This document shows positions 5,420-60,479 of a DNA stretch of 64,000 nt, piece by piece (the stretch's first letter is position 1; each line of letters starts with the position of its first letter). Source of the stretch: Eledone cirrhosa (lineage: Eukaryota); the NCBI GenBank assembly GCA_964016885.1, contig OZ024760.1, positions 26,722,001 through 26,786,000 of the forward strand, given 5' to 3'. The notes under the pieces were generated by a model. The model worked only from the letters and a program-made list of their open reading frames with translations. It ran no database searches and was not told the origin of the DNA. Both the position numbers and the translations under genes were made by a program.

Positions 5420-5420
<1 letters not shown>

Positions 5421-5868
5421 GATATATTAACAAATGGAAACTATATTTATAAAACCATATTTATTTCATTATACATATTTCAAGGACACCAAGTTAAATT
5501 ATGGTGTGCTTTCATCAGATAAAATATAATATAGAGCAGTTTTATAAATAAATATTGACATACCCTTAAAGAATGCGACCATTTCTGTTGGACACTATCC
5601 GGGAGCTTCCAACAGTAATGGTTGCATTCTTTAAGGGTATGTCAATATTTATTTATAAAACTGCTCTATATTATATTTTATCTGATGAAAGCACACCGTA
5701 ATTTAACTTGGTGTCCTTGAAATATGTATAATGAAATAAATATGGTTTTATAAATATAGTTTCCATTTGTTAATATCGTATTTTTACTCCAATTATTTGT
5801 TGAGTGCTTTATATCAGTTATAAAAATATTTACTTGTTGTATCCCAACAATTTAAATAGAACTTTTAC
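5420..5868. mobile_element. Fold-back fragment of the PLE terminal repeat (family B), one HHR per arm
   Basis: 5420-5582 is the inverse of ~5620-5780. Homologous to 56472-56687. Plus-strand HHR at 5674-5738: UAUUUUAU-CUGAUGA-AAG...CUU-GAAA-UAUGUA-UA/AUGAAAUA. Minus-strand HHR at 5462-5526. Confidence 0.85.
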
Positions 5869-6033
5869 ATATATATACATATATATATTTATATACACCC
5901 TTTTGGGGACAGTGTGAAATTTCTTTTTGAAGAACTACTGGGCTTTCAAGCTTAGCGGTCCTTCTAGCACTGACGGAGACCATCACTGAATATTAATATT
6001 AATGTAGTTTTTTATATTGATTCTGCCTGGGCA

Positions 6034-6156: not shown

Positions 6157-6552
6157 AAGAAAGAGAGATTTATTTAATTATGTCTCATATAAAATAATAC
6201 AGCCAACTATCCACGAAATACAATATAGTTATCACTCCAAACGTATACTGAGGTAGATCCTAATGTTTGTTGAGTGAGATGGAGTTGGTCAGAGTATCGC
6301 TAAAAGCTTTCTCTGTTAATGTATTAAATATATATATTTTGACAACAGCTGGTGATATGGATGTAAGTAAATATTCACCTTATCTGATATTTTGTAGATA
6401 GATCGATAACGAAGTATAGTTACGTTACATAGATCGATAACGAAGTATAGTTACGATGTATTATCCTCACCTAGAAACGATCGTAAAACTGAAGTATATT
6501 TCTAATGACTTGATTTTTTATTTCATTTTTTTAACTTATATATATATATATA

Positions 6553-6965
6553 AAATAAAATAATTAAGTCAAATATTTAAAATTTGGCTTCGTTTATGAA
6601 AGGTGTACTGCTATATATATTTCGGTGCCAGCCATCCTGGGCTGTGACCTCTTCAGGCAGTCCAAATTGGTGTGGTAGAGACAGGTACACATGTTGTTGA
6701 AGTTTTTAACTCCGTCAATACTCCGATATGACCAGTTCCTGGTTGGGAACTGGAATCATATATGATTCCAGTTCCTCAGAGAAATAACAACTCAACCAGG
6801 AACTGGACATATCGGAGTATTGACGGAGTAAAACACTTCAACAACATGTGTACCTGTCTCTACCACACCAATTCGGACTGCCTGAAGAGGTCACAGCCAA
6901 GGATGGCTGGCACCGAAATATATATAGCAGTACACCTTTAATAAACGAAGCCAAATTTTAATATA
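6553..6965. mobile_element. Fold-back element family O with two HHRs
   Basis: Near-perfect inverted repeat centred ~6762. HHRs at 6607-6661 (-) and 6877-6931 (+): ACUGC-CUGAAGA-GGU(cagcca agga uggcug)ACC-GAAA-UAUAUA-UA/GCAGU. Confidence 0.85.
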
Positions 6966-7640
<675 letters not shown>

Positions 7641-7657
7641 TATATATATATATATAT

Positions 7658-9381
<1,724 letters not shown>

Positions 9382-9383
<2 letters not shown>

Positions 9384-10155
9384 AATAAAATAATTAAGTC
9401 AAATATTTAAAATTTGACTACGTTTAATAAAGGTGTACTGTTATATATATATTTCGGTGCCAGCCATCCTTGGCTGTGACCTCTTCAGGCAGTCCGAATT
9501 GGTGTGGTAGAGACAGGTACATATGTTGTTGAAGTGTCTTTTACTCCGTCAATACTCCGATATGTCCAGTTCCTGGTTGGGTTGTTATTTCTCTGAGGAA
9601 CTGGAATCATATGAGGTAGAACAAACGAATTTCGGCGTCATAGGACACCCTCTCCTCCCATTGGTCAGTTGTGAGAACATTCCTCAGTCAAAAGTCTATA
9701 GAAATTTTTCTAAGGCAAGACAATCTGTTGTGGTTGTACAGTACAGCTGACCTCCTCCATTGTGTTGGTAGTGGTATTGGTGTTAGGGGTCAGCAAGCAG
9801 GTCAGCTTTAGTTCGGCTGCTGCTAATTTTACAAGAATTTGTGTGTGGGGGTTGGCATCTACCCTGCCACCATTTGAAATGTCTTAGTCACCAGGAGAAA
9901 GGTGTTCAAACATACATATGTGTGTATATATATAGAGAGAGAGATTTTGAGTTTATGACTCCAGTTCCTCAGTGAATTAACAACCCAACTAGGAACTGGG
10001 CATATCAGAGTACTGACAATATTATACACCTAAACAACATATGTACTTGTCTATACCATACTAATTCAAACTGCCTGAAGAGGTCACAGCCAAAGATGGC
10101 TGTCACTGAAATATATATAGCAGTAATAAACGAAGCTAAATTTTAATCATTTGAC
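9382..10155. mobile_element. Family O arms in inverted orientation with HHRs
   Basis: HHRs at 9437-9493 (-) and 10070-10124 (+). The right arm is more diverged, and extra internal sequence lies at 9612-9910. Confidence 0.75.
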
Positions 10156-10168
10156 TTTTATTTAACTT

Positions 10169-10208
<40 letters not shown>

Positions 10209-10212
<4 letters not shown>

Positions 10213-10507
10213 CTCTATATATATATATATATATAGTGCTCTACCACTACGGATATTACCTTCCAGTGTTCTACCACTATATATATATATATATATAGTG
10301 GTAGAACACTGGAAGGTAATATCCGTAGTGGTAGAGCACTCAGTCCATGGGACGGGTTAGGTAGAAGTTGTTACACAACAGTTAGTTCACCATACCGAGA
10401 ACAATTGTTTCACCTTAGCGGATCCTCAGCTGGTCCATTACGAGCTGAGAATCCGCTAAGGTGAAACAATTGTTCTCGGTATGGTGAACTAAATGTTGTG
10501 TAACCAC

Positions 10508-10510: not shown

Positions 10511-10549
<39 letters not shown>

Positions 10550-10551
<2 letters not shown>

Positions 10552-10741
10552 CGAAGGAGGTGTGGTAAGGAACCAGATGGACCATAACGCACCAGAGTAC
10601 TCAATACTTAGGGTCGTAGAGTGGGTAATAGGAAAATGTTTAACCCCGACCGTAGCTCAAGCCATTTCGACGGCTATTGCTGGACTACAGAAATAGCCGT
10701 CGAAACGGCTTGAGTTCTGCCGTCGGGGTTAAACATTTTCC
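10550..10741. mobile_element. Fold-back element family A
   Basis: Palindrome aggaaaatgtttaaccccgac...gtcggggttaaacattttcct plus the family tail. Confidence 0.75.
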
Positions 10742-10805
10742 TATATATATATATATATATATGATAAAGAACACAAGAGCGTCTACAACATCAAAAGATT
10801 TTTAT

Positions 10806-19257: not shown

Positions 19258-21628
19258 TTGCATGCCAGAACCTGATGTATAAGATGCATACAGCCTGCCT
19301 GAACCTATTTCTCCAAGATATCTGTGAAAATAATTGTTTCTACTTTTGGCACAAGGCCAGCAATTATCTCAGTACATTACTGGTACTTTATTTTATCGAC
19401 CCTGTAAGGATGAAAGACAAAGTTAACCTCGGCGGGATTTGAACTCAGAATGACAAGAACCGTACCTCTATGCGTCAAAGCATGGCGTCCGACCCTCTAC
19501 CGATACAGCCAATCCACTGTGAAAATAATAACACCATCACAGATGAACAAGCAGCTGGAAAGAAAGGGGTTTAGGGATGTGCTGAACAACTCCTAATCAA
19601 CAAAACTGCGATGTTAGAGGTGCGACAACTTAGGTGAAATATGGCTACATTCTGGCTGGAAAGCTTTCGATTCCGTTCCCCACTCTTGGATGATAGAAGC
19701 CTTCCAACTTGCTAAAGTCCCAGATATTATTGTCAGAGCCATAGAGAGGCTGTCTTCTTCTTGGGCTACTATCCTAAGGTTAAAGACAGTGAGGGATACA
19801 TCATTGGCTCACAGGAGGACAGAAATACGAATCTAACCCATAATTTCTTTGTGGACGATCTGATACTCTATGACAAGAACATAGATGGGATGAACAAAAA
19901 TCTTGACCTGGTTACAACGTTCTCAAAGGATATAGGAATGGAGTTTGGCCAAGATAAATGCTCATACATGACTGTAAAGCGAGGAAAAACAACAACCCAA
20001 TCTAGCAACATTATCATCAATGGCCTAACTGTTTCACCGATATCTGATGAGGACTGCTACAGATACCTGGGGATAGATGAGGACATATCCTATAAGGTAT
20101 CTGTAATAAAGAACGCGTAACCAGGGAATACTACACCCGATTAAGAAAGATCTGGTCATCGGAACGCTCTGCGCAAAACAAAACAGTGGCTCGCAATGTG
20201 TTTGCTGTGCCTGTCCTAACACCAACGTTTGGAATACTCAATTGGACGATAGACGAAATTCGAGCAGTTGATGTTGGAACTCGAAAAATACTAAACAACA
20301 CCGGAAACTTCCACATCAACAGTGACATAGACCGCCTTTACTTGAAACGTAAGCAGGGAGGTAGAGGCCTAACATCAGTCCAGGCAACATTTGAATGTCG
20401 CATCATATCTCTCCGACAACATCTACGAACCTCGAAGCGTAGGAGCCCGTTTCTCGAGCAAATCTATCTGCATGAAACAGATAAGATCATGAGAGTTGGG
20501 AAGGAACTCCTCGAGATATATTCCGTATGATAATCAAAAACTCACAACCAGGGAAGTCTCTCAGCAGTATCGCAGTGAATCCATGGATGAAAAACTGCAT
20601 GCTTATCAGCAAAAAGTCATGCATGGATATGTTGCCAGGAAGCTCCAGAGTGAGAGTAATATAGATAAAGAAAGTAGTCTATCTTGGACCAACAACCGCT
20701 ATATTGGCTCCCACTTTGAAGGATACGCTTTTGCAATCCAAGAACAGGAGATTAACACGAAATACCTGATTCACAAAAGAGATAGGGGTGCAGGCTAAAC
20801 ACCTAGATGTGATAACAAGTGCAGACTCTGCAGAACTAACATCGAGGATATCACCCATGTCATAAGCAGCTGTCCAAAGATGACATCGCGGTACTATCTA
20901 CCTATGAGGCGTGAATTAGTGGCCACAACACTGTACAATGCAGTTCGTAAAAAAGATAGCCCCGATAATAAACACATTAAAAGCTACAGCAATGTGGAAG
21001 ACATCCATGTACATAATATGAAAGAGTACTGGTGGAATGTTCCAGTAAAAACCCCAATAAAATGCAGACATAACAGACCAGATATTATGATATGGGACGG
21101 AGAAGAAAACATGCGCAGTAGTGGAAATTAGCTGCCCAGCAGATGGCAGTATAATATCAACGATTAGTGAAAAGGAGAATATTTATGCAGAACTGATGAG
21201 AAATCTGCAGATACTCCACCCTAATTACACCTTCAGATTTATGCCTGTGATTATTGAGGCACTGGGATATGTTAGTAACTGCCTCAATACAAATCTTGAG
21301 AAGCTGGGCTTCACAGGAACAGTAAGAAAACAACTAGTTAGGAAATTACAAGTACAATCCATTAATGGAACAGTAAAAATATGTAGAACATTCCAAAAAT
21401 TTTGCATCTAATAACTGCATATACACATGTACAGATACAAAGCATATACACATGCACACATACAACACAAAACATACACATCCACACATACAATAACATC
21501 CATATCTACACATACATACATATCTACCTAGTTGATGTTGTGTAAATTCCAGTGAGAGAGTCTTGTGTCTATGTTAGAAACCGACTCTCTCTCTATTGGT
21601 AAAACTTTGTGACATTATAAAACCAGAA
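19258..21628 (+). pseudogene. Decayed RLE-type non-LTR retrotransposon (R4/Dong-like), 5'-truncated
   Basis: RT motif LTHNFFVDDLILY, LYLKRKQGGRGL, CCHC finger CRLCRTNIEDITHVISSC, and RLE motif HNRPDIMIWD...VEISCP. Several frameshifts. (CATA)n on both flanks. Confidence 0.85.
19335..19516 (-). mobile_element. SINE S1 nested in the R4-like element with a 13-bp TSD
   Basis: TSD ctgtgaaaataat at 19322-19334 and 19517-19529. Confidence 0.9.
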
Positions 21629-24193: not shown

Positions 24194-24430
24194 TATACAC
24201 ACATATATATATATATACATATACACATATATATATATATATTAATATATGATAAACATTTACATGTTTTAGTTGCAATTGACTAATAAAATAGTTAGAA
24301 TGAAATATCTTAATTCAAATACATATAGTTTGCCTGTACGATCTAAAAAATAACAAATCAATACTCACAAACCATATGGGCAAAAGGCCTTGGTACCTAG
24401 ACACGTTTAAATTTCAAGCTTGCACGGTTT

Positions 24431-25350
24431 TCCACGACACGTTTCCTCCATCCATCTCTGTCTCTCATAGCGTTTGCCAGTTTTTCCGCAGTGCATCAAG
24501 TATCGTCCTCAAGCTGCTTGACGTATGTCTTCTTGGGACGGCCAACGTTTCTTGCTCCATGAGATGGACTCCATAACAACACGTCACCTGCTATTTCTTC
24601 CTTGCTGCGCCAACAGTGGCCAGCAAATCTGATGTTAACATCAGACTGGGAAAAGCCTGGGGAGCATTGAATGCAATGGAAAAGATATGGAAATCAAACC
24701 TGCCGGCCAAACTGAAAAGGAATTTCTTCAGAGCTGCTGTGGAATCTGTGCTTGTTCATGGCTCTGTCACTTGGACGCTAACGTCGAGACTGGAGAAAAA
24801 GCTAGACGGGGCATACACACGTATGCTCCGCACTGCTGTAAACGTGTCTTGGAGGGAGCACCCAACAAATAAGGATATCTATGGTAATATACCACCTATC
24901 AGCAGGTCAATACGTGGGCAGAGACTCAGATATATATATACTAGACTATATATATATATAGTCTAGTATATATATATGTAGTCAAAACTGGAGGAAAAGC
25001 TAGACGGGGCATACACACGTATGTTCCGCGCTGCTTTAAACGTGTCTTGGAGGGAGCACCCAACAAATAAGGATCTCTATGGCACCTATCAGCAACTCAA
25101 TACGTAAACAGAGACTCAGATTTGCTGGCCACTGTTGGCGCACCAAGGAAGAAATAGCAGGTGACGTGTTGTTATGGAGTCCATCTCATGCAGCAAGAAA
25201 CGTTGGCCGTCCCAAGAAGACATACGTCAAGCAGCTTGAGGGCGATACTGGATGCACTGCGGAAGAACTGGCAAACGCTATGAGAGACAGAGCTGGATGG
25301 AGGAAACGTCTCGTAGAAGGCCGGGCAAGCTCGACCTGATGATGATGATG
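24431..25350 (+). pseudogene. Two RTE-like LINE 3' fragments, the first internally inverted
   Basis: [18 protein letters not shown]...[10 protein letters not shown]...GRP. 24431-24631 is the inverted continuation of 24632-24930. The second copy (24985-25350) ends in (tga)n. Confidence 0.85.
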
Positions 25351-25368
25351 ATATATATATATATATAT

Positions 25369-25495
25369 CCTGATGATTTCTCACGAATGAAACAGTTCTA
25401 GTCCTGTAGAAGCTCTTCTATATTAAAACTTTTATACTCTGCTGTGTATTGAGTACCTTACTTACTGTGGTTACCTCCGATTCAACCCGGAATAA
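25369..25495 (+). mobile_element. Family C fragment starting at an HHR core
   Basis: CUGAUGA-uUUC ucac GAAu-GAAA-CAG uucuaguc CUG-UA/GAAGC. The 5' strand of stem I is lost into (TA)n. Confidence 0.65.
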
Positions 25496-25544
<49 letters not shown>

Positions 25545-27070: not shown

Positions 27071-28320
27071 CTAAGGCGGGTAAAATTCCCGAGATCCATG
27101 GACGAGTTCTCTCCAGCGGTCTCTGTCCCTCATTATCGCTGCCATATCCTGCATCTCCAACAGACCAGTGTCTGTCCTTAGGGCATCAACATATGTTAAC
27201 CTTGGTCTTCCACTTGTAGTGTGTCCATGTAGGGGCTCCCAAAGGAGCACTGAGTGCAATGTCAACTCCGGATGTCGGTGAGCATGTCCAGCTAACCTCA
27301 GTCTCCTCTGTGTCACTTTTGAGCTGACTTTTGGGATGCTCCCATACAGCTCTGAGTTTTTCATCCTCAGTGTATACTGATTAATGTTCAGAGTCATCCT
27401 CAGCATTCTCGTGTAGCACTCATCCACCATCTGAGTGAGTTTCTTGGTCAGTGTCCAAGTCTCAGACCCATACAGCAGCACAGACTCCACTACAGCAATG
27501 AAGAGGCGGATTTTCAGGTCTCTACGAAGGTCCGACTTCCACACCGATCTCAAGCTGTGGCACGCCGCCCAGGCCTTCCTCTTCCTCTCAACCACATCAT
27601 CTTCCGTATTCCCAATCTTTGCTCCCAAATACAGGAAGTCCTCGACCAATTCCAGCGGCTTCCCGCCTACATTAGTGATCCCCTCTGGCTTCTCAACATT
27701 CTCTACCAGATATTTTGTTTTAGTCTCATTCATTCTCAGCCCCACACTCATCGACACAGTCTCAACCTCCCGCATCAAATCTTTTGTCACTTGTGGCAAA
27801 GACCCTCAACAGGATGATTCTTAACAGGATCCAGCCTGAGATGGAGAAGAAGCTCAGGGACAACCAGAACGGCTTCAGAGAGGGTAGATCAACCACCAGT
27901 CACATCCTGATGCTGAGGAGGATATTATAGGGAGCTAGAGCAAAGTGCCTTCCTGCGGTCATAGTTTTCATTGACTTTAGGAAGGCCTTTGATTCTGTGG
28001 ACCGTTACTGCCTGATGAAGATCTTACAGGCTTATGGAATCCCCAAGAAGATAGTGGACCTGATATCACTGCTCTACACCAACACCAAAGCCCAAGTCAT
28101 TACACCTGATGGGATGACAGAGTTCTTTGAGATACTGGCTGGAGTGCTCCAGTGAGATACATTGGCTCCCTACCTTTTTATCATCGTAGTGGACTATTGT
28201 ATGCGCCTTGCACTGGAGAAACACCAGGACTCTGGCTTTACTGTAGCACCGGCTCAGAGCAGGAGAGTTAGGGCGAAAAAGGTATCGGATGCTGAATTTG
28301 CCGACGACATAGTTTTGGTG

Positions 28321-36321: not shown

Positions 36322-36465
36322 GAAAATGTGTGTAATCCTTGGTACAGTTAGGTATATTAAGACGGGGGGAAGAAAAAAATGGCTTCACTTGTGCTTTCAA
36401 CAAATTTATTAAATTTGTTGAAAGCACAAGTGAAGCCATTTTTTTCTTCCCCCCTGTCTTAATAT
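36319..36465. mobile_element. Fold-back element family N in (TA)n
   Basis: Palindrome 36355-36465 centred on aaatttattaaattt, plus a tail. A second copy with the same long-arm end starts at 39122. Confidence 0.7.
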
Positions 36466-36489
36466 ATATATATATATACATATATATAT

Positions 36490-36856
36490 AAAGTAGAAGG
36501 GATATTCAATTTGTTGGTAATTCAACAAATATAAATATTTATAACTGATTCAGAGCACTCGACAAGTTTTCTGGAGTATAATATACAATGATATTAAATA
36601 AATGGAAACTATATCTATAAAACCATATTTATTCTATTATATATATTTCAAGGAAAACTTATATTTCAAGGAAAACTTATATTTCAAGGAAAACTTGAAC
36701 CGTTAAGGTATATTATCCTTGGTTATGTCAAAATTTATAAAACACACTTTGTATTTTATCTGATGATAGCGTACCAAAATGTTGGTACCCTTGAAATATA
36801 TATAATAGAATAAATATGGTTTTATAAATATAGTTTCCTTTTATTTAATATCATTG
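36490..36856. mobile_element. Fold-back fragment of PLE terminal repeat family B
   Basis: Long arm homologous to 56475-56622. The short arm carries an HHR with core ctgatga at ~36760. Confidence 0.75.
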
Positions 36857-37118
36857 TATATATATATACACACACACACAATGTCAGGACCCCGACGGCT
36901 GAGCTCCGGCCGTTTCGACAGCTAGATCCGAACTATATATATATAATTTAATAGAGAAATGGCTTTCCCGGAGATTTTTATTGAATGAAACAGTTCTAGT
37001 CCTGTTGAAGCCATTTCTATATTAAATTTGTTGTTTACACTCTACCAATGTATTGAGTACATTATTTACTGTGCTTACTCACGATCGAACCCGGGACTCG
37101 TGTGTGTGTGTGTGTGTG

Positions 37119-37151
<33 letters not shown>

Positions 37152-37270
37152 GTTTACGGCCATATCACGCTGAGAATATCGGTTCTCGTCCGATCACCGA
37201 AGTTAAGCAACGTCGATCCTAGTTAGTACTTAGATGGGTGACCTTGGGAACCCTAGGTGCCGTAAGCATT
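37152..37270 (+). rRNA. 5S rRNA copy (probably a pseudogene or SINE head)
   Basis: gtttacggccatatcacg...ctcgtccgatcaccgaagttaagcaac...gttagtacttagatgggtgacc...gccgtaagc. Terminal stem pairs, internal promoter boxes are recognisable, and there is a small deletion after gtgacc. Confidence 0.88.
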
Positions 37271-37635: not shown

Positions 37636-37687
<52 letters not shown>

Positions 37688-37689
<2 letters not shown>

Positions 37690-37973
37690 AAAGTTCTATT
37701 TAAAATTGTTGGGATACAACAAGTAAATATTTTTATAACTGATATAAAGCACTCGACAAGTATTTGGAGTAGATATACGATATTAATAAATGGAAACTAT
37801 CCGGATAACTTCCAAAAACAATGGTTGTATTTTAATAGGGTATGTCAACGCTTATTTGTAAAACTGTTTATATATTGTATTTTGTCTGATGAAGGCATAC
37901 CATAATTTAATTTGGTATCCCTGAAATATGTATAATGAAATAAATATGGTTTTATAAATATAGTTTCCATTTA

Positions 37974-37980
<7 letters not shown>
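37688..37980. mobile_element. Fold-back fragment of PLE terminal repeat family B with HHR
   Basis: UAUUUUGU-CUGAUGA-AGG...CCU-GAAA-UAUGUA-UA/AUGAAAUA at ~37878-37942. (TA)n on both sides. Confidence 0.8.
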
Positions 37981-38031
<51 letters not shown>

Positions 38032-38785: not shown

Positions 38786-38825
<40 letters not shown>

Positions 38826-38827
<2 letters not shown>

Positions 38828-39020
38828 CAAAGGAAGTGTGGTAAGGAACCAGGTGGACCATTACGCACCAGAGTACTCAATACTTAAGGTAGTAGAGTGG
38901 GTAATAGAAGAATCAGGACCCCGACGGCTGAGCTCTGGCTGTTTCGACAGCTAGATCCGAACGTTCGGATCTAGCTGTGGAAACGGTCGGTGTTCAGCCG
39001 TCGGGGTCCTGATTCTTTTC
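38826..39020. mobile_element. Fold-back element family A
   Basis: Palindrome centred on ccgaacgttcgg, with the same end points as other copies. Confidence 0.75.
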
Positions 39021-43440: not shown

Positions 43441-44400
43441 ATATATTATATATATATAAGTTAAAACAATGAAATAAAAAATCAAGTCATTAGAGATATA
43501 CTTCTAATGACTTGATTTTTTATTCCATTGTTTTAACTTATATCATGACTCTGTTTTCCTTTTAATGTTTTATTGTTTTCCGAAATATATGTTAACCTAC
43601 AACATTTTCAACATATGAATTACATCGAGTTCTTCATACAGAATAGACCCCACAACTTACTGTGGATACCTCTGTGTATATATATATAATAGAATAATCG
43701 AGTATCGGAAAATCAGCTCACGAGTTTACGATAAACAAATCCGACATGAGTGGCAGAGGGCTCAATAATTCAGATAAATCAGAGCTATAACTATCGTTAA
43801 AATACCAACACACAAAGATTATGCCTAAAATCACCCGTGCAGCCGAAAAATAACGACCAGGAAGATTCGGGTCACTCAGATAAAATATCAATAAATCAAT
43901 AACTTATATGAATGTAAAAACTTACCCGGACCCACTAGAAAGATGGTAAATCTAGCTTCTTGGGTTTCTGCAATTCCTTAATCCGCCCCCTATCAGCCCA
44001 CATAAAAATATATAAGACTTCTAGAGAGCGGATGGACCGGAACACTTTATCAACGGGTCATGTCCAAACGAATAGAGAAGCTAACTTTAGCTGGGACGCA
44101 CATGGAGTCCAGCAAGGGAGATAACCTCTATATCCGCGAAAAATTATCGGTAATGTGGGAAACCACATATCGAATAAGAGTGCTCGATAGACATGTTAAA
44201 ATAAACAGGAGCTATTCATCATTCAATAGAATCGACAAAAAATGAACAAAAAAAAAAAATATATATATATATGAAATATAAGAATCAAAGAACTGTTCAA
44301 AACATTATTGTGTAAAATACTTACAACTGCTTAAGGTTTTGTATTTACATAACCATAAATAGTATAACTAATACTATATATATATATATATATATATATA

Positions 44401-52607: not shown

Positions 52608-52643
<36 letters not shown>

Positions 52644-52681
52644 ATTAAATAAATGGAAAACTATATTTATAAAACCATATT

Positions 52682-52747
52682 TATTTCATTATATATATTT
52701 CGGGGATATCATATTAACAATATGCTATGCCTTCATCAGACAAAATA
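52682..52747 (-). ncRNA. Hammerhead ribozyme in the 3' terminal repeat
   Basis: UAUUUUGU-CUGAUGA-aGG...CCc-GAAA-UAUAUA-UA/AUGAAAUA. The first stem II position is an A-C mismatch here but paired (A-U) in relatives at 5674 and 37878. Confidence 0.75.
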
Positions 52748-53112
52748 CAATATAAACAGTTTTATAGATAAATATATTCGACATACCGTAATAAACATCA
52801 ACTTCATTTGAAGAGGTTCACTCTAGCAGTGAAAATACAGAGAGAAAGAAAGAGAGAGAGAAAAGAGGGAAATAAGAAAGAAAGAAAGACAAAACGAAGA
52901 AAAGGAAGAAAAAGAAGAAAAAGAAGAAATGCATGGGACAAAATAGAGAGATGGAAAAATAGATAAAGCGAAGAGCTTCATGTAAAGAGACCGAAAGAGA
53001 TATATATATATATAGAGAGAGAGAGGAAATAGAGATAGATACATATATAAATATAGATATAGAAAAATTAGGTAGTGGGAGGTCATTTTGAGTAAGTGTA
53101 TCAATGATGCAT

Positions 53113-53147
<35 letters not shown>

Positions 53148-54209
53148 GCTCAAGTATTAATGTAAGGGAGATATATAGAGAGATATAGAGAGATATAGAG
53201 AGAGAAAAATTTAAAAATAGCCAGACATATTCGAGGCGTAGAAAACCCTATGTTTTAATGTATTAGTATTTATAAAACTTACACTATATTGTAAATATCA
53301 GTATTCCTGAATGAAACAAGTATTCACAATGCGTGAAAATTCATTATCTTATGTTTAGTTTTTTTAAAAAAATTCATATGTCTATGTGAATCCAACTGAT
53401 TCACTCCGCAAATTCAAAGTTACAGGAAAACATTCTCAATGTGGTATAAAAATTTGAGCGTATTATTATTCTCTACAAGATTATCTATCAATCTATAGAG
53501 AGCAGATTTCAATATACTAATCGAAAATATATATTATATTATAAGCAGAGATAACAATAATAATGATAATAAGTAAAAATATATAAAAATATAAAAATAT
53601 AGAATAGAAAACTAAAAAAGAATATTACGAAAGAATATTACATAATAAAAATATTGCATATTAAAAATACTACGTATTAAAAATATTACGTATTAAAACT
53701 TTACATATAAAAATATTAAAAATAAACTTACATATAAAAATATTAAAAATAAAAATAAAATAAAATAAAAAATAAAAATATAAAAATATTATAGAATACT
53801 ACAATACTAAAAGAATAAAAATAAAAGTAAACCACAAAGAACAACCCTTCAAGGTTAATTGACAATATATTGCCAAGTTCACTACAAGACAAAGCCAAAA
53901 ATTTATCTATCAAATCACATCTAGCAAGGAATATCGCAAAAAAGATTATGATGTCCAATAATGTCTACATATGTTCCTATATTTAATATATAAGTTTATC
54001 AAGTGTAAGGTTAATTCAGAAAATTTGGAGCATCGGCTTTTAGGGTAGCTTAATTTTTCATGAGGAATGTTTAGATAAAAATAAAAATAAAAATAAAAAT
54101 AAATAAAATAAAATAAACAATAAAAAGAGTAAAAAGAGGGAATCAAAGATTTAGGAATCAAAAGATTTATCGGCTAGTTCTCATATAAATATAAATCAAA
54201 CTAAATATA

Positions 54210-56423
54210 CTACATTTTAAATTTAAATTTATATTTAAACGTTGAGTTTAATCTATGTTTGCAACAACTGAATAAATTTGTCCGTAGGTTAAGGGAATTT
54301 TTAGATTTTAGTATAAAGAATATCTCCTCTGCGCAGAGGTCACATGTCTCAGAGGATGAATTAAAAGGAATCCCTCTTGAGACTATATTCCAAGCCGTCG
54401 AATATCTAACGTTATCTAGCTTAAGTTGCCAGAGTACACCTGATAGTGCCGTTGAAGATTTTTTATTTGGATCTGTGAAAGAATTCTTGTGGTTATTATA
54501 GCGAAGTTTAAATTCCGTCGATGTGGAACCGACGTAGTTAAAAGAATTAGAGTCAGTATTAACATTACAATTGTATACTATATTTTTAACTAAGCAGTTG
54601 TTATTTAACGGACATTTAGATCTATCTCTACAGTTACATTTGTTAACTTGTATATTATTTATGCTATTATCAGTAGGTTTTAAGTTCCTATTATTTATTC
54701 TATTAATATTTTGTGCTAAATTTTTGGTGGATGAGTAGGTTAATTTAATTGTATGCCTATTGAAGATTGAGTGGTACCTATGTGTTCTAGGGAAGCGATT
54801 ATCAAGAGCTTTGAAAAATAATTTAGCGATGTGGGTTTTAATGTTTAGTGAGAAAGGGGGGGCAAACCAAATTATGTTCCTAGTTCTATTTCTTTTTTGT
54901 CCTTTGGAATTATTGTAATGCTTTCTATTATAGTTGTTAATGTTGTTGCCATAATTAAAAAAGTTGTTACTTTGTTTAGTTTGTTTATCATTATCTATGT
55001 ACACAATCTTATCAGCATACCCTGCCCTAGCTAGTGCATCATTATAGTATTGGGTCTTTTCGTCAAAAATCTTTCTATTCGACGAGATCCTAGAGATACG
55101 TTTTTGGACTGAGTTTACTATAGTGTTTTTGACAGATCTGGGGTGGTTAGAGTTAAAGTTGACATAGTTTAAGTTTTCATTCAACTTGTGAAAAGGATAG
55201 TGGAGACATGTGTTGAGATTTAATGTTATATCTAGGAAATTGACTATTCTATGGTTGTTCTCAATTTCTATTTTAAGGTTAAAGTAATTAAAAAATTTTG
55301 TAATTTGTTTACATTTTCTATTTAGTTCAGGGTTATTATTATTAATAAGTAAAAGCATGTCATCCCTATATAAACCTCCGGTAGTACCAGGTATTTTCCT
55401 ATGTAGCGAATTGATTAAAAATAAGCCCACAAGGTCAGTTACTTGAGCTGAGTCGGAAGATCCCATAGTTATGTCAAAATTGCTATCTCTATCTGCTCTC
55501 GTCCATAATTTGTCATCAAATTCTATCAAAGTTTTCCTAGCCGATAATATAATATGCATTTCTTTGCTAGTTAGGTCCGTATGTTTGAATGCGTAATTTA
55601 GTGCCTTATTTAGTAGACTAGGGGTAATAGAAGAATAATAGTTAGCTATATCAAGTTGAATAAACCTATTATTATTGTCATATTTAATTTGCCTAAACCA
55701 CTCAACAACCTCTCCAGTTCCCTTCCACAAGCTCAGGTTAGATACATAATCCAAGCTCTTAATTTGCAGTATCACCCTGTCAAGAATGTTTTTGCTCAAT
55801 TTGCCCAGGTCCGATTTTGAAGGTGCGATCAATCTAACTGGCAGGTCAATCTCAAAATTCCTCTTGTGGTCCTTCATATTGATCTTCGGTTTCCTGGGCA
55901 CGAAAGGTTGTGTTCTGTTCTCAATTTCCAACTCATGCATTATACAAGATGCTTCAACATTCATTTTCTCAAGTTCGGTCTTATCTGCTACCTTGTATTT
56001 TTTCCTCAGCTCTTTCAGTATGAGGCCATTATACATGTCTTTCTGCACTCCATAGAGGTTGTTGGTCTTGTCAGATTTCACCAAGATCTTCCCAGTTTTC
56101 TCTAAGCTCTCAATGTTATCCTTAATGCCTTTCAGATATTCCTGGCCTTTAAAGTTTCTCTTGAATTTGACCCCTTGTATGATAGAAATTATATCGTTTT
56201 CAAAGTCAGATAAAAGTTTGTTAGGGGGTGGATTTCTTTTAGATTTGAAAACTTTGTTTAAGTTCGAGATATTTTCGTCTGCATTAAATTTATCAAAGTG
56301 GAATGCACGCCACCTGATTCTCCTTATAAAAGAGTCAGATTTATCTATTAGTTGTTTTACAAAGTCTTTGTTTCTAGGTAGAGGTATGTCTTTTAGAGAG
56401 GAAGTAATCTTAAAGAATTCCAT
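54210..56423 (-). CDS. PLE polyprotein: reverse transcriptase plus C-terminal GIY-YIG endonuclease (737 aa)
   Basis: KSDKT, PVRLI, LDIANYYSSI, DITMGSSDS, LYRDD, VNFLDITL, SNHP. Linker CNCRDRSKC (CxCx5C). IVY...YVGST...FKLRYNNH, and C-terminal CDLCAEE. Confidence 0.95.
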   Translation of the reverse strand: MEFFKITSSLKDIPLPRNKDFVKQLIDKSDSFIRRIRWRAFHFDKFNADENISNLNKVFKSKRNPPPNKLLSDFENDIISIIQGVKFKRNFKGQEYLKGIKDNIESLEKTGKILVKSDKTNNLYGVQKDMYNGLILKELRKKYKVADKTELEKMNVEASCIMHELEIENRTQPFVPRKPKINMKDHKRNFEIDLPVRLIAPSKSDLGKLSKNILDRVILQIKSLDYVSNLSLWKGTGEVVEWFRQIKYDNNNRFIQLDIANYYSSITPSLLNKALNYAFKHTDLTSKEMHIILSARKTLIEFDDKLWTRADRDSNFDITMGSSDSAQVTDLVGLFLINSLHRKIPGTTGGLYRDDMLLLINNNNPELNRKCKQITKFFNYFNLKIEIENNHRIVNFLDITLNLNTCLHYPFHKLNENLNYVNFNSNHPRSVKNTIVNSVQKRISRISSNRKIFDEKTQYYNDALARAGYADKIVYIDNDKQTKQSNNFFNYGNNINNYNRKHYNNSKGQKRNRTRNIIWFAPPFSLNIKTHIAKLFFKALDNRFPRTHRYHSIFNRHTIKLTYSSTKNLAQNINRINNRNLKPTDNSINNIQVNKCNCRDRSKCPLNNNCLVKNIVYNCNVNTDSNSFNYVGSTSTEFKLRYNNHKNSFTDPNKKSSTALSGVLWQLKLDNVRYSTAWNIVSRGIPFNSSSETCDLCAEEIFFILKSKNSLNLRTNLFSCCKHRLNSTFKYKFKFKM

Positions 56424-56602
56424 TTTTCAGTTATAATATAAAGCGCTCAACAGTATTGGAGCAAGATACATGTAAAGTTATATTTAAAATTGTTGGGTTA
56501 CAACTAGTAAATATTTATAACTGATATAAAAGCACTCGACAAATACTTGGAGTATATTTACAATATTAAATAAATGGAAAACTATATTTATAAAACCATA
56601 TT

Positions 56603-56668
56603 TATTTCATTATATATATTTCGGGGATATCATATTAACAATATGCTATGCCTTCATCAGACAAAATA
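56603..56668 (-). ncRNA. Hammerhead ribozyme in the 5' terminal repeat
   Basis: Identical to 52682-52747. Confidence 0.75.
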
Positions 56669-56696
56669 CAATATAAACAGTTTTATATATTTATAT

Positions 56697-56743
56697 ATAT
56701 TTACTTATTGTTCCACAATGCTTCAAGTAAACTTCAATACTCT

Positions 56744-56787
<44 letters not shown>

Positions 56788-57217
56788 AGAGTATTGAAGT
56801 TTACTTGAAGCATTGTGGAACAATAAGTAAATATCTTTAAGTCGTTTGGAAGCCTCGACAATGCAAATGGGTAAATCTCCGGGTAACAAGGTCCGGTGGT
56901 GGAGAGAGAGATGTAAGTGAGTGTACGTTGAGATGCGTGGTGTGTATAAGATGTGTGAGATGTGTAGAATGAAGGGAAGAGTATAAAGGATAAAAATAAA
57001 AATAACAACACAAGAGAGAGTTACCTTGGGAGAGATTTAATAGTCCCTGGGACTATTAAATCTCTCCCAAGGTAACTCTACACATCTCACACATCTCATA
57101 CACGCCACGCATCTCAACGTACACCCACTTACATCTCTCTCTCCACCACCGGACCTTGTTACCCGGAGATTTACCCATTTGCATTGTCGAGGCTTCCAAA
57201 CGACTTAAAGATATTTA
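56697..57217. mobile_element. Fold-back element family J plus detached tail copy
   Basis: 56826-57048 is inverted against 57049-57217 (centre tccctggga). 56697-56746 is the reverse complement of 56783-56832. No HHR core found. Confidence 0.7.
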
Positions 57218-57240
57218 TATATATATATATATATATATAT

Positions 57241-57400
57241 AACGAAGGAGGTGTGGTAAAGAACCAGATGGACCATAACGCACCAGAGTACTCAATACTT
57301 AGGTTAGTAGAGTGGGTAATAGGAAAATGTTTAACCACGATGGCAGAGTTCAAGCCGTTTCGATGGCTTGAGCTCTGCCGTCGGGGTTAAACATTTTCCT
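57241..57400. mobile_element. Fold-back element family A
   Basis: Same arms and end points as 10550-10741. Confidence 0.75.
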
Positions 57401-57578
57401 ATCTATATGTGTGTGTGTGTGTGTTAAAATAACAGATTAAAGTTTAAGCAAAGAATCAATGGGTTAACGGGATCTTCCTTTGCTCTATGGTTTTTATATA
57501 TTTATATATATATATATATATATATAATCCTTATCGAACCCTCTTCGGATCTTACTTAGTCTTCACATTTATTATTAT

Positions 57579-57621
<43 letters not shown>

Positions 57622-57764
57622 GTAATGAAAACAAAGGGAAAATTCTCCAAAGTGGGGGACTTCCGAGGTTAGGTTTGCCTTTCATCCTTACGGGTTCGAT
57701 AAAATAAAGTACCAGTAATGCACTGGGGTTGATTTAATCGACTTCCCCCTCCCTTCGTTGAAAG

Positions 57765-58223
57765 ACGCTAACATCTCGCGTATTAAATGGAGAAAGACTG
57801 TGGAAGAATGAGGGGAAAGCTGCCTTTGAGGCATCTCGAATCGCACACGAGAAAGTAAAGTGGGACGTGAGGAAGGGCATTGCTGTTGCACTTCCAGGCG
57901 GCGAGGGTCCTCCTATGGCGCTGACATGCAACGTCTGTGCGAGACTCTGCCTCAGCAAAGCTGGACTCGAAAGTCATCTTCGCAGTCATAAAGTAAGACC
58001 AGTGGTTGACTACCAGGCTACTGATAGAGATGCTACTCATCATGCTTGCCAAGCATGTGGTAGAGAATGTAAATCAGTAGGAGGGCTGAAACGACATGCA
58101 AAAGTACATGAAGTCCAACCACAGCGGGCTATTCCCAGTGAATGTTTTGGTTGCCAAATCTGTGCAAGACATTTTAGATCATTGGCTGGACTAAAAAGCC
58201 ACATTCGATCGCAACATCATTAA
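57765..58223 (+). pseudogene. RTE LINE 3' fragment with three C2H2 zinc fingers
   Basis: Homologous to 2400-2768 (RIAHEKVKWDVRK vs RIEHEKIKQDVRK). Fingers CNVC..H..H, CQAC..H...H and CQIC..H....H. Confidence 0.8.
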
Positions 58224-58735: not shown

Positions 58736-59740
58736 ATATATATATCATTGTTTTTTTATTGTGCAATGACCATACAAGATAACGAGGGGGCAGCCATCAT
58801 GCATGCATGTATGTATGTATATATGTATGCGTATAAATGTTTATGTAAATGTATATGTATATGTAAGTGTATATGTGTATATATATGTGTGGATATTATG
58901 TATGTATATATATATGTGTGTATATGTATGTATGTATGTATATATATATGACTGTGTGTGTATGTATGTATATATATATGACTGTGTGTGTATGTATGTA
59001 TGTATGTATGTATATATATATGACTGTGTGTGTATATATGTGTATATATATGTGTGTGTGTATATATGTGTATGTATATATATATATGTGTATGTAGATA
59101 TATATGTATGTATATATATGTCAGATCACCAGTTGGTGCTACTGGTAACATGTATCCCAGTACAACCTGTCCCATGGTCGGGTCGTTGGCGACTAAACTG
59201 GCAACCCTATCAAAGTTTCTTGGTGAGGAGGGTGACTTAGGACATCCTGCAGGACTAAAAACAAAACCTGTCAAAGGGCAAAGAAGCTCTTAGTGTCAAT
59301 GGCCATCCAAAATCACCAGGAGAGATGACCTCTTAGCCTTTGTCAAGGCAGAATTCTAGGAGAAGGAAAACTCTGATATAACACCTGCAACTCTGATGGT
59401 ATCCTATGATGTTGACTTGTTCTTCTTTTTGGTAAATATCATCTTGGTTAAGAGAGTGGGACTGGCTTTGAGCAGTGCCTTTGCTCACTATAAAAGCTTC
59501 ACGGCACAGGCATTGCTTTATATCTGGAGATCTCTCTGCACTTGTCGTCACATGGTACCATGGGCCCAGCATTATGTGTCAATAATTGTCACAAGTGTAG
59601 TGTTTGTACCAGAGTTTTCAAGTCGCTGGCTGGACTAAAAAGTCACACTCGTTCAGCGCATCGGTAGGGGTTCTCCTACACGGATATAAAGTAGTGGCCG
59701 TACTCGAAAACGAGTTAGCAGCCACCATATATATATATAT

Positions 59741-59920
59741 AGGAAAATGTATGACCCCGTCAGCAGAGCTCAAGCCGTTTCGACGGCTATTTCTGGAGTC
59801 TAGAAATACCCGTCGAAACGGCTTGAATTCTGCCGTCAGGGTCATACATTTTCCTATTACCCACTCTACTAACCTAAGTATTGAGTACTCTGGTGTGTTA
59901 TGGTCCATCTGGTTCCTATT
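59741..59920. mobile_element. Fold-back element family A
   Basis: Palindrome aggaaaatgtatgacccc...gggtcatacattttcct plus a truncated tail. Confidence 0.75.
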
Positions 59921-60479
59921 TCTCCAGTCTCGTTCCTTAAGACCTGTAATAATATAGAGTGGTAGGGGGGGGGGGGGGGGGTGAGAGGAAACGTAATCGT
60001 CTGACATCACATGGAAATCCCTTCAAATATGTCTGCCAAGGAGCATGTCCATACGATAATATTTTCTACATACTATACAACGTTTGCAAAGCAACCAATC
60101 TTCACGACCTGTGTACAAACATCACCTCTTGTAGCTGTTATTAGAAACTTTAGACTGCGTCCATTTTGAAAAATGGACACCCGCTTCTTCTTTTTTTTTA
60201 TGTGTGTGAATGGGGAATTACTAAGGGCGGGGGACTGAGTGTACTTGAGAATGATACTTGCTCAATAGACGGCAATCAGACGAAAGCTTTAATGTAGCAT
60301 TTCTGCTCTTGAACTCTACCTTAAAAATATCTTATGTTTGAGCAAGACTGACTGCAAACACCAACAAAAACGACAGCAGCTTTGGTACACAATGGAAAGC
60401 TGGGAGTTATCATAATATTGACCATTTTCACTTGGACAGTGAACAAAAGAAGCGATCTAAAGGTGATTGATATAATATG

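Follow-up and report, generated by a model that had tools for sequence, protein, structure and literature searches.

Twin hairpins in a Hydra-clade Penelope-like retrotransposon of Eledone cirrhosa as candidate markers of two reverse-transcription starts

A 64,000-nucleotide (nt) stretch of Eledone cirrhosa DNA from contig OZ024760.1 (hereafter the window, whose positions serve as coordinates throughout) carries what, by its sequence, is an intact partial-tandem copy of a Hydra-clade Penelope-like element (PLE). The copy has the order pseudo-long terminal repeat (pLTR), open reading frame (ORF), pLTR, and is joined to a (TA)n tract. The present study suggests that the reverse transcriptase (RT)-endonuclease of this element probably binds two conserved RNA hairpins and probably starts reverse transcription 4 to 9 nt before either of them. 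By analogy with related systems, we infer that these hairpins would set the two RT start sites that create the PLE ‘tail’.

The hairpin motif lies downstream of the hammerhead ribozyme. Its lower stem has 4 pairs, 2 nt bulge out on the 3′ side, and the upper stem varies; a short conserved run follows. It recurs in relatives from varied marine samples. In 77 metagenome loci, 87 matches fell on the sense and 5 on the antisense strand, and the motif was found in 31 of 40 regions following a hammerhead versus 5 of 800 shuffles. Most of the regions that lack it are copies ending in (TA)n before the hairpin, or variants. All 22 upstream copies contained at least one hairpin and 14 contained two when the pattern was used with a pairing filter. 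Since MAFFT left the variable-length hairpins out of register, covariation was counted by an anchored pattern, which found the partner strand for 72 of 113 anchors. In these 72 distinct cases, for which pairing was not required, the bases immediately above the bulge formed C-G in 47 and U-A in 25.

In the element itself, the hairpins occur only at 56553 (with an A-U closing pair) and 56462, both within the 5′ untranslated region (UTR). Among the published consensi, Hydra-1_Ajap has both hairpins and Hydra-2_Amil has one; Naiad and Chlamys give one match each to the 3′ half of the hairpin, its partner being absent by eye. Within the window, the motif was missing from seven of seven other fold-back stretches. 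As a marker that places ORF-less fragments in the Hydra clade, it flagged 11 more copies belonging to two other families of the window. A lone example on the minus strand (44180-44212) shows no link to other families. We found no Rfam family and no relevant literature for the hairpins. The words ‘hairpin’ and ‘stem-loop’ have no uses in the text and supplement text of PMC8557442 or in the retrozyme preprint (bioRxiv 10.64898/2026.07.22.740005), a scope outside which lie Repbase Reports, subscription journals, figures, and the preprint supplements.

The inserted ends lie close to these hairpins. Seventeen of 18 TA-joined ends, from six families, map 4 to 9 nt before a hairpin, 13 of them at hairpin 1 and four at hairpin 2. 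Specifically, the ‘short’ 3′ ends lie 5 to 9 nt before hairpin 1 and the ‘long’ 3′ ends 7 to 8 nt before hairpin 2, and each of the three fold-backs considered below (at 5420, 36490, and 37688) combines one short with one long end. In the sequencing reads (4 of 19 runs mapped on 52767-56745), loose ends are joined to TA at both sites, the long-site joins to (TA)n lying at 56474 in runs X1 and X5.

Several observations weigh against this reading. One of the 18 ends stayed unmapped, the 18 are not independent (seven from this family group, seven from a family designated B, and four from other loci), and for three long ends the mapping reference was this element, not their own master. The ends share 0 to 5 nt with the TA tract; therefore, primer pairing alone may set them. 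By the strict pattern, 8 of the 22 upstream copies show only one hairpin. The 72 hairpins are related by descent, and their G-U and A-C counts (3 versus 2 of 72) do not discriminate between an RNA and a single-stranded DNA structure. Furthermore, neither the hammerheads nor the tail stretch gave better minimum-energy folds than shuffles (z −1.4 to +0.5).

Alternatively, the hairpins could serve otherwise, in endonuclease recognition of the element’s own DNA, in transcription or translation control, or in ribozyme folding, with the ends fixed by nothing more than base pairing between the nicked (TA)n primer and UA-rich RNA. A UA-rich stretch does precede most hairpins, and the D. virilis endonuclease is reported to need tail sequence for cleavage (PMC11167929). 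The TA nucleotides shared at the ends and the undiscriminating strand counts also accord with such a role. However, the whole region is AU-rich, yet the ends keep their spacing, some of them sharing no TA at all, and the widely varying spacer inside the motif fits a hairpin better than a duplex-DNA site. We consider this alternative rather unlikely and favor hairpin binding by the RT-endonuclease. As a separate observation, an 18-nt TA run lies in the 5′ UTR of one relative (L005:455-500) just before hairpin 2, at the long-end position. Two Hydra copies (L038:2507-2956 and L058:2272-2567) end in a TA tract, tail to tail with a hammerhead repeat on the opposite strand.

If the RT-endonuclease acts at the hairpins, its GIY-YIG domain would nick (TA)n, and the nicked end would prime on the UA-rich stretch that immediately precedes a hairpin. 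Nicks in both strands would let one of them prime at hairpin 1 and its partner at hairpin 2, and head-to-head joining of the resulting two short complementary DNAs would give a fold-back with one short end and one about 90 nt longer; a 9-nt overlap is present at the 37688 junction. The three named fold-backs would have been made in this way from sister-family RNAs and not from the sequence of the copy described here. A Poseidon PLE has been reported to nick and extend both strands and, with the RNA left uncut, to initiate at two internal sites that delimit the tail (PMC11167929). The 3′ pLTR of our copy ends at the short site and thus lacks both hairpins. With the hairpins of the copy confined to the 5′ UTR, only short pieces bearing the ribozyme would be expected from a plain transcript. 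Full-length daughters would need a template that is either tandem or a ribozyme-cut, circularized 3,921-nt unit; a tandem or circular template has been reported for retrozymes (PMC7229834).

A broader proposal, which we hold more tentatively, is that the hairpin pair, held by the telomerase-like RNA-binding domain, acts clade-wide as a ruler for two RT starts, one per nicked (TA)n strand. If true, such a ruler would account for the tail, the lopsided fold-backs, and the excess of short ribozyme pieces, and full-length copies would then depend on a tandem template or on a circle made by the ribozyme. Besides, a tag of 20 nt could in that case be enough for this compact RT-endonuclease to accept any RNA as template. 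The published accounts consulted leave unexplained what fixes the two ends of the PLE tail, and the twin hairpins are a specific, mutable candidate that comparison across relatives backs strongly. Since this copy supplies both an unbroken 737-aa protein and its cognate RNA, and since an assay exists, the tail-end question becomes a direct in vitro test.

A close mechanistic parallel is PAc, a Poseidon-clade element of Anolis (Frangieh et al. 2024, PMC11167929). PAc shares with our element an RT-GIY-YIG protein, a hammerhead in the pLTR, AT-rich targets, copies extending past the point of ribozyme cleavage, and two internal RT starts bounding the tail, which in our element are putative. In contrast, PAc belongs to another clade, its starts lie inside an AC-rich stem-loop within the ORF, and its tail measures 30 to 40 nt. 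The candidate starts of our element lie just before two separate 5′ UTR hairpins about 90 nt apart. Head-to-head truncated copies, a tail at one end, solo pLTR pieces, and microhomology at the 5′ junction are likewise described for other PLEs (PMC8557442, PMC3846280). These accounts explain the structures by endonuclease resolution or self-priming, and in the parts of both sources available no RNA element that fixes the ends is given. Thus, inverted pLTRs, tails, solo pLTRs, and fold-backs with tails are already known for PLEs, and the twin hairpins are the new part.

The first-pass annotation had linked three small palindromes of the window to this element and had taken the element as their candidate driver. 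The link to a PLE is supported: five matching pieces at 5420, 36490, and 37688 are 81.7 to 90.7% identical to the terminal repeat. All three relatives are real, although the full fold-back with two hammerheads exists only at 5420; 36490 retains one whole hammerhead, and 37688 has one hammerhead and arms overlapping by only 25 nt. The driver claim, in which the copy or its family is the template, is not supported. Between the two 5420 arms there are 3 substitutions and 1 indel over 173 columns, whereas each arm is only about 84% identical to the element. Moreover, 5420 and 37688 have indels in common that the element lacks. When five hammerheads were compared, 97.5% of cells stayed paired and 3 of 8 stem II pairs had changed on both sides. 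This level of pairing was reached by 0 of 500 shuffles, and the number of two-sided changes by 49 of 500. The arm identity, the shared indels, and the compensatory stem II changes therefore mark the fold-backs as products of sister families.

The opposite possibility, that this copy or its own family was the direct source and the fold-backs have since decayed, draws on their 82 to 91% identity, same ends, and same target, and on the abundance in the reads of short pieces of the element’s repeat. We regard it as quite improbable: arms that differ at 4 of 173 columns stand about 16% from the element, the shared indels are foreign to it, and decay would not give two-sided changes in stems that remain paired. 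Sister-family origin is thus preferred, and mobilization of the fold-backs in trans by the element’s protein is possible. We also observed that, upstream of the ribozyme, the starts of 5420 and 37688 almost coincide (5596-5605 and 37795-37805), possibly because both mark the 5′ end of the sister-family RNA or because the two have a microhomology in common.

TA tracts and inverted repeats are difficult to assemble, and the specific junction at the 5′ end of the element, where 48 nt of neighboring DNA stand inverted, is not among the read rows listed. An assembly artifact at TA tracts as the source of the fold-backs and of this flank is nevertheless scarcely credible: the fold-back arms are non-identical, and raw reads of run X17 join opposite strands at 56579 (15 reads) and at 56675 (14 reads).

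The window contains many other fold-backs, and at least two further Hydra-type families form them. Family B has seven copies (1158-1320, 6961-7150, 7470-7645, 10540-10744, 38820-39017, 57240-57402, and 59739-59960). These very short fold-backs turn inside the hammerhead, carry the same hairpin, and extend on one side into a tail of about 75 nt. Family C comprises four pieces (7332, 25370-25500, 37039, and 45173), each containing the 3′ half of the hammerhead together with the hairpin and terminating, about 45 to 55 nt further on, at (TA)n or (CA)/(TG)n.

Short non-coding repeats with type I hammerheads, linked to the pLTRs of PLEs, also make up the non-LTR retrozymes (PMC7229834, bioRxiv 10.64898/2026.07.22.740005). 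Those form head-to-tail tandem arrays expressed as circles, whereas the three short pieces discussed above are single head-to-head insertions, and we rejected that class for them. A few go-back joints in run X17 hint at tandem copies elsewhere.

As had been annotated at first pass, each terminal repeat harbors a hammerhead; it is of type I, the descriptor search placing the cores at 56660 and 52739. Stem I has 13 pairs, stem II contains a C.C mismatch, and stem III is palindromic. The descriptor gave 12 matches in the window versus 1 in total in 10 shuffled windows. In the Rfam search, the hammerhead is missing from the best 150 of 318 rows, and 56400-56700 yields nothing above chance. Among the 77 metagenome loci, hammerheads were found in 20 of 37 with sufficient downstream DNA and in 17 of 27 with sufficient upstream DNA. 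Hammerheads with a palindromic stem III have a precedent in dimeric ribozymes (PMC4209133), and the palindromic stem of our element suggests a dimeric ribozyme here as well. A further fold-back family (6520-6975 and 9360-10185) shares with the element both the palindromic stem III and a stem II interrupted by a C.C mismatch; its tail is about 25 to 30 nt, and the Hydra hairpin was not found in it.

The 737-aa ORF (56423 to 54210, minus strand) is free of stops, as originally annotated. It contains the catalytic RT residues D258 and YRDD (352-355) and, C-terminally, the GIY-YIG endonuclease residues Y617, Y630, G632, R641, H645, E700, and N712. D258, Y352, D354, D355, and the seven endonuclease residues, all present in our ORF, are invariant in 86 of 86 aligned full-length relatives. 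The earlier recognition of a CxCx5C linker followed by a C-terminal GIY-YIG domain proved correct: the linker is formed by C596, C598, and C604 (596-604), with an invariant C610 beside it, and CxxC (694-697) and CxH (721-723) motifs follow. A sequence search returned 472 representatives under 1e-30, the best named relative being an Argonauta hians protein (39% identical). Pfam gave 0 families for the ORF, and the PDB sequence search gave only two group II intron RTs at E 0.6. The ESM Atlas neighbors are eukaryotic clusters, some having GIY-YIG in 26 to 50% of members.

A structure model of the protein reached a predicted local distance difference test (pLDDT) score of 90.8, and a single-sequence model of the endonuclease alone 31.5. 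The best structural match to the former, a predicted model, is telomerase RT (residues 1-497, Z 17.6, root-mean-square deviation 4.3, 317 aligned), which covers the RNA-binding, RT, and thumb regions. In contrast to telomerase RT, with which it shares about 14% identity, the element’s protein has a C-terminal endonuclease and would copy its own mRNA. Between the thumb and the linker lies a low-confidence, Asn-rich loop (window 54855-55000; residues ~475-520, 13 Asn in 50) that recalls the Asn-rich inserts of Adineta Penelopes (PMC3846280). A single ORF with a telomerase-related RT, the GIY-YIG catalytic set, and hammerhead-bearing pLTRs from a partial tandem together identify an endonuclease-bearing (EN+) PLE.

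The diagnostics reported for the Hydra clade are DKT, RWK, the CxCx5C linker, loss of CCHH, and C-terminal CxxC and CxH, along with a hammerhead and (TA)n targets, GxKF/Y not being conserved (PMC8557442). In our ORF, DKT is present (D118-K119-T120), and CCHH is absent, a single Cys standing between GIY and YIG. The RWK position reads RWR (37-39), a site at which 50 of the 86 relatives have K and 27 have R. A GVKF string occurs at residue 84; by string match only, GxK[FY] occurs anywhere in 35 of 86 relatives. In both the ORF and the model, the endonuclease is C-terminal, and neither an N-terminal endonuclease nor the Naiad CxC block is present. A TA tract adjoins 8 of 8 ends against a background of 12%, the tract having been used in part to define the ends. 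The ORF is 35% identical (256 of 735, E 9e-140) over its whole length, the endonuclease region included, to locus L028, which by eye matches the published Penelope-1_NV in the 81-nt hammerhead row and protein rows shown. Because it has the published protein motifs other than RWK (Craig et al. 2021) and is identical to this extent, full-length, to Penelope-1_NV, the Hydra-clade assignment proposed at first pass is supported. Naiad/Chlamys membership was ruled out by the C-terminal endonuclease, DKT, and the hammerhead (that class has an N-terminal endonuclease, DKA, and no hammerhead). Membership in Penelope/Poseidon, Neptune, or Nematis was ruled out as well, since those have CCHH in the endonuclease and DKG.

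In a 53-sequence unrooted tree (the ORF, 44 of 85 aligned relatives, and 8 added sequences, with one identified Hydra member), the ORF and three Argonauta proteins form one group (support 0.97-0.99), separate from that of Penelope-1_NV. The tree has no non-Hydra outgroup, which counts against its use for the assignment. None was found among the 77 metagenome loci or among 98 viral loci selected by a ribozyme pattern, and the viral contigs contained no relative. The long branch of the group with the Argonauta proteins, the 3.9-kb unit (against <3 kb), and RWR in place of RWK would suit an unnamed PLE lineage next to Hydra and not inside it. The remaining Hydra diagnostics are nevertheless present, R is found in 27 of 86 relatives at the RWK site, the hairpins are common to the element and published Hydra consensi, and several residues are shared by Hydra-1_Obim and the ORF by eye. 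Such a lineage is thus very unlikely, and we retain placement within the Hydra clade.

Hydra-clade members, e.g., Penelope-1_NV and Hydra-1_Obim, likewise have a single ORF with RT and C-terminal GIY-YIG, a canonical hammerhead, and a (TA)n target (PMC8557442). Our element differs from them in its 3.9-kb unit, its 1.4-kb 3′ UTR, RWR, the palindromic stem III, and the C.C mismatch in stem II. Its cut-to-cut unit of 3,921 nt exceeds the <3 kb general for Hydra elements, which is a tendency, not a rule (PMC8557442). From the ORF end to the ribozyme, the element has 1,471 nt versus a median of 153.5 in relatives (range 102-549, n=28). Hydra-1_Obim of Octopus bimaculoides, already listed in Craig et al. 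2021 (PMC8557442), has another hammerhead and a consensus without pLTR, and our element is a different family. Recently active Penelope families are known in Octopus vulgaris (PMC13282606). Judging by these sequences, the element thus represents a new family within a clade that octopus was already known to carry.

The reads show the element family in many variants and from two organisms. Depth over the ORF climbs toward the 3′ end, and the pLTR bin is about ten to more than a hundred times deeper than the ORF bins, depth not being equal to copy number. In the 3′ UTR, 53166-54229 was covered in four runs, 52767-53217 being left out as repeat; loose ends indicate that in other copies the pLTR extends into the first bases of the 3′ UTR. 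Of 308 substitutions, 40 were listed, and 39 of these fall in the ORF (23 synonymous, 16 non-synonymous, no stop); none of 12 listed indels (of 25) falls within the ORF frame. The family is under selection, since 14 of 19 shared ORF variants are synonymous versus 34% expected for transitions.

The copy had also been called young. In its favor, the pLTRs are identical: the 127 bp reported earlier become 129 nt when the 2 nt shared with the TA tract are included. However, 0 differences in 129 nt are compatible with up to 2.3% divergence. At 14 of the 39 listed ORF positions, the copy departs from the majority letter in all four runs; these 14 private positions comprise 5 synonymous and 9 non-synonymous changes (5 of the 9 in one variable loop) and could reflect either some decay or a subfamily difference. 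Considering the divergence allowed and these departures, the copy is recent in a loose sense only.

The features of the element and its three fold-back relatives are collected in the table.

Table. Coordinates of the element and its fold-back relatives in the window; ribozyme, hairpin, and domain labels are predictions
Feature	Position	Strand	Remark
Sister-family fold-back	5420..5870		Left arm short end, right arm long end; two hammerheads, one hairpin 1
Sister-family fold-back	36487..36860		Long end on left arm, short end on right; stem II disrupted in left hammerhead
Sister-family inverted pair, 9-nt overlap at joint	37687..37981		Long end on left piece, short end on right
(TA)n target tract at element 3′ end	52611..52639		29 nt; sequence and repeats table
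3′ pLTR, 129 nt	52638..52766	−	Identical to 56559-56687; ends at short site
Type I hammerhead, 3′ copy	52677..52753	−	Predicted cut after 52690
3′ UTR, 1,443 nt, U-rich	52767..54209	−
737-aa ORF	54210..56423	−	N-terminal domain, RT, thumb, Asn-rich loop, CxCx5C linker, GIY-YIG endonuclease
Hairpin 2	56443..56462	−	4-bp lower stem, 2-nt 3′ bulge, short upper stem
Hairpin 1	56532..56553	−	A-U closing variant
5′ pLTR, 129 nt	56559..56687	−	Truncated tandem copy of 3′ end
Type I hammerhead, 5′ copy	56598..56674	−	Predicted cut after 56611
Inverted copy of neighboring repeat’s end (56786-56834)	56697..56745		48 nt identical; between element 5′ end and TA tract
(TA)n tract, 40 nt	56746..56785		Sequence

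The TA flanks noted at first pass were found on both sides, as a 29-nt TA tract on the 3′ side and a short TA-rich stretch on the 5′ side. The latter is followed by the 48-nt inverted copy, which the first-pass annotation had not mentioned, and then by the 40-nt TA tract. Short inverted duplications of flanking DNA, this one included, lie directly beside PLE-type insertions at 56691-56840, 10235-10340, and 36353-36466, two of the three being centered on a TA tract. Possibly they result from fold-back priming of the nicked target, or represent a tail piece of the neighboring repeat. That neighbor (56787-57215) is a PLE-like fold-back flanked by TA tracts; one of its sides bears a tail of about 41 nt, and it has neither hammerhead nor hairpin. 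Six short window motifs were unmatched in the published Naiad, Chlamys, and Hydra consensi, where line breaks can mask matches, so the neighbor is called PLE-like only. Elsewhere in the window, 19716-21131, 24414-25334 (folded back), 27071-28100, and 57762-58223 hold what we take by eye to be LINE-type ORF fragments, and a lone 5S ribosomal RNA-like sequence (93.6 bits) lies at 37152-37268.

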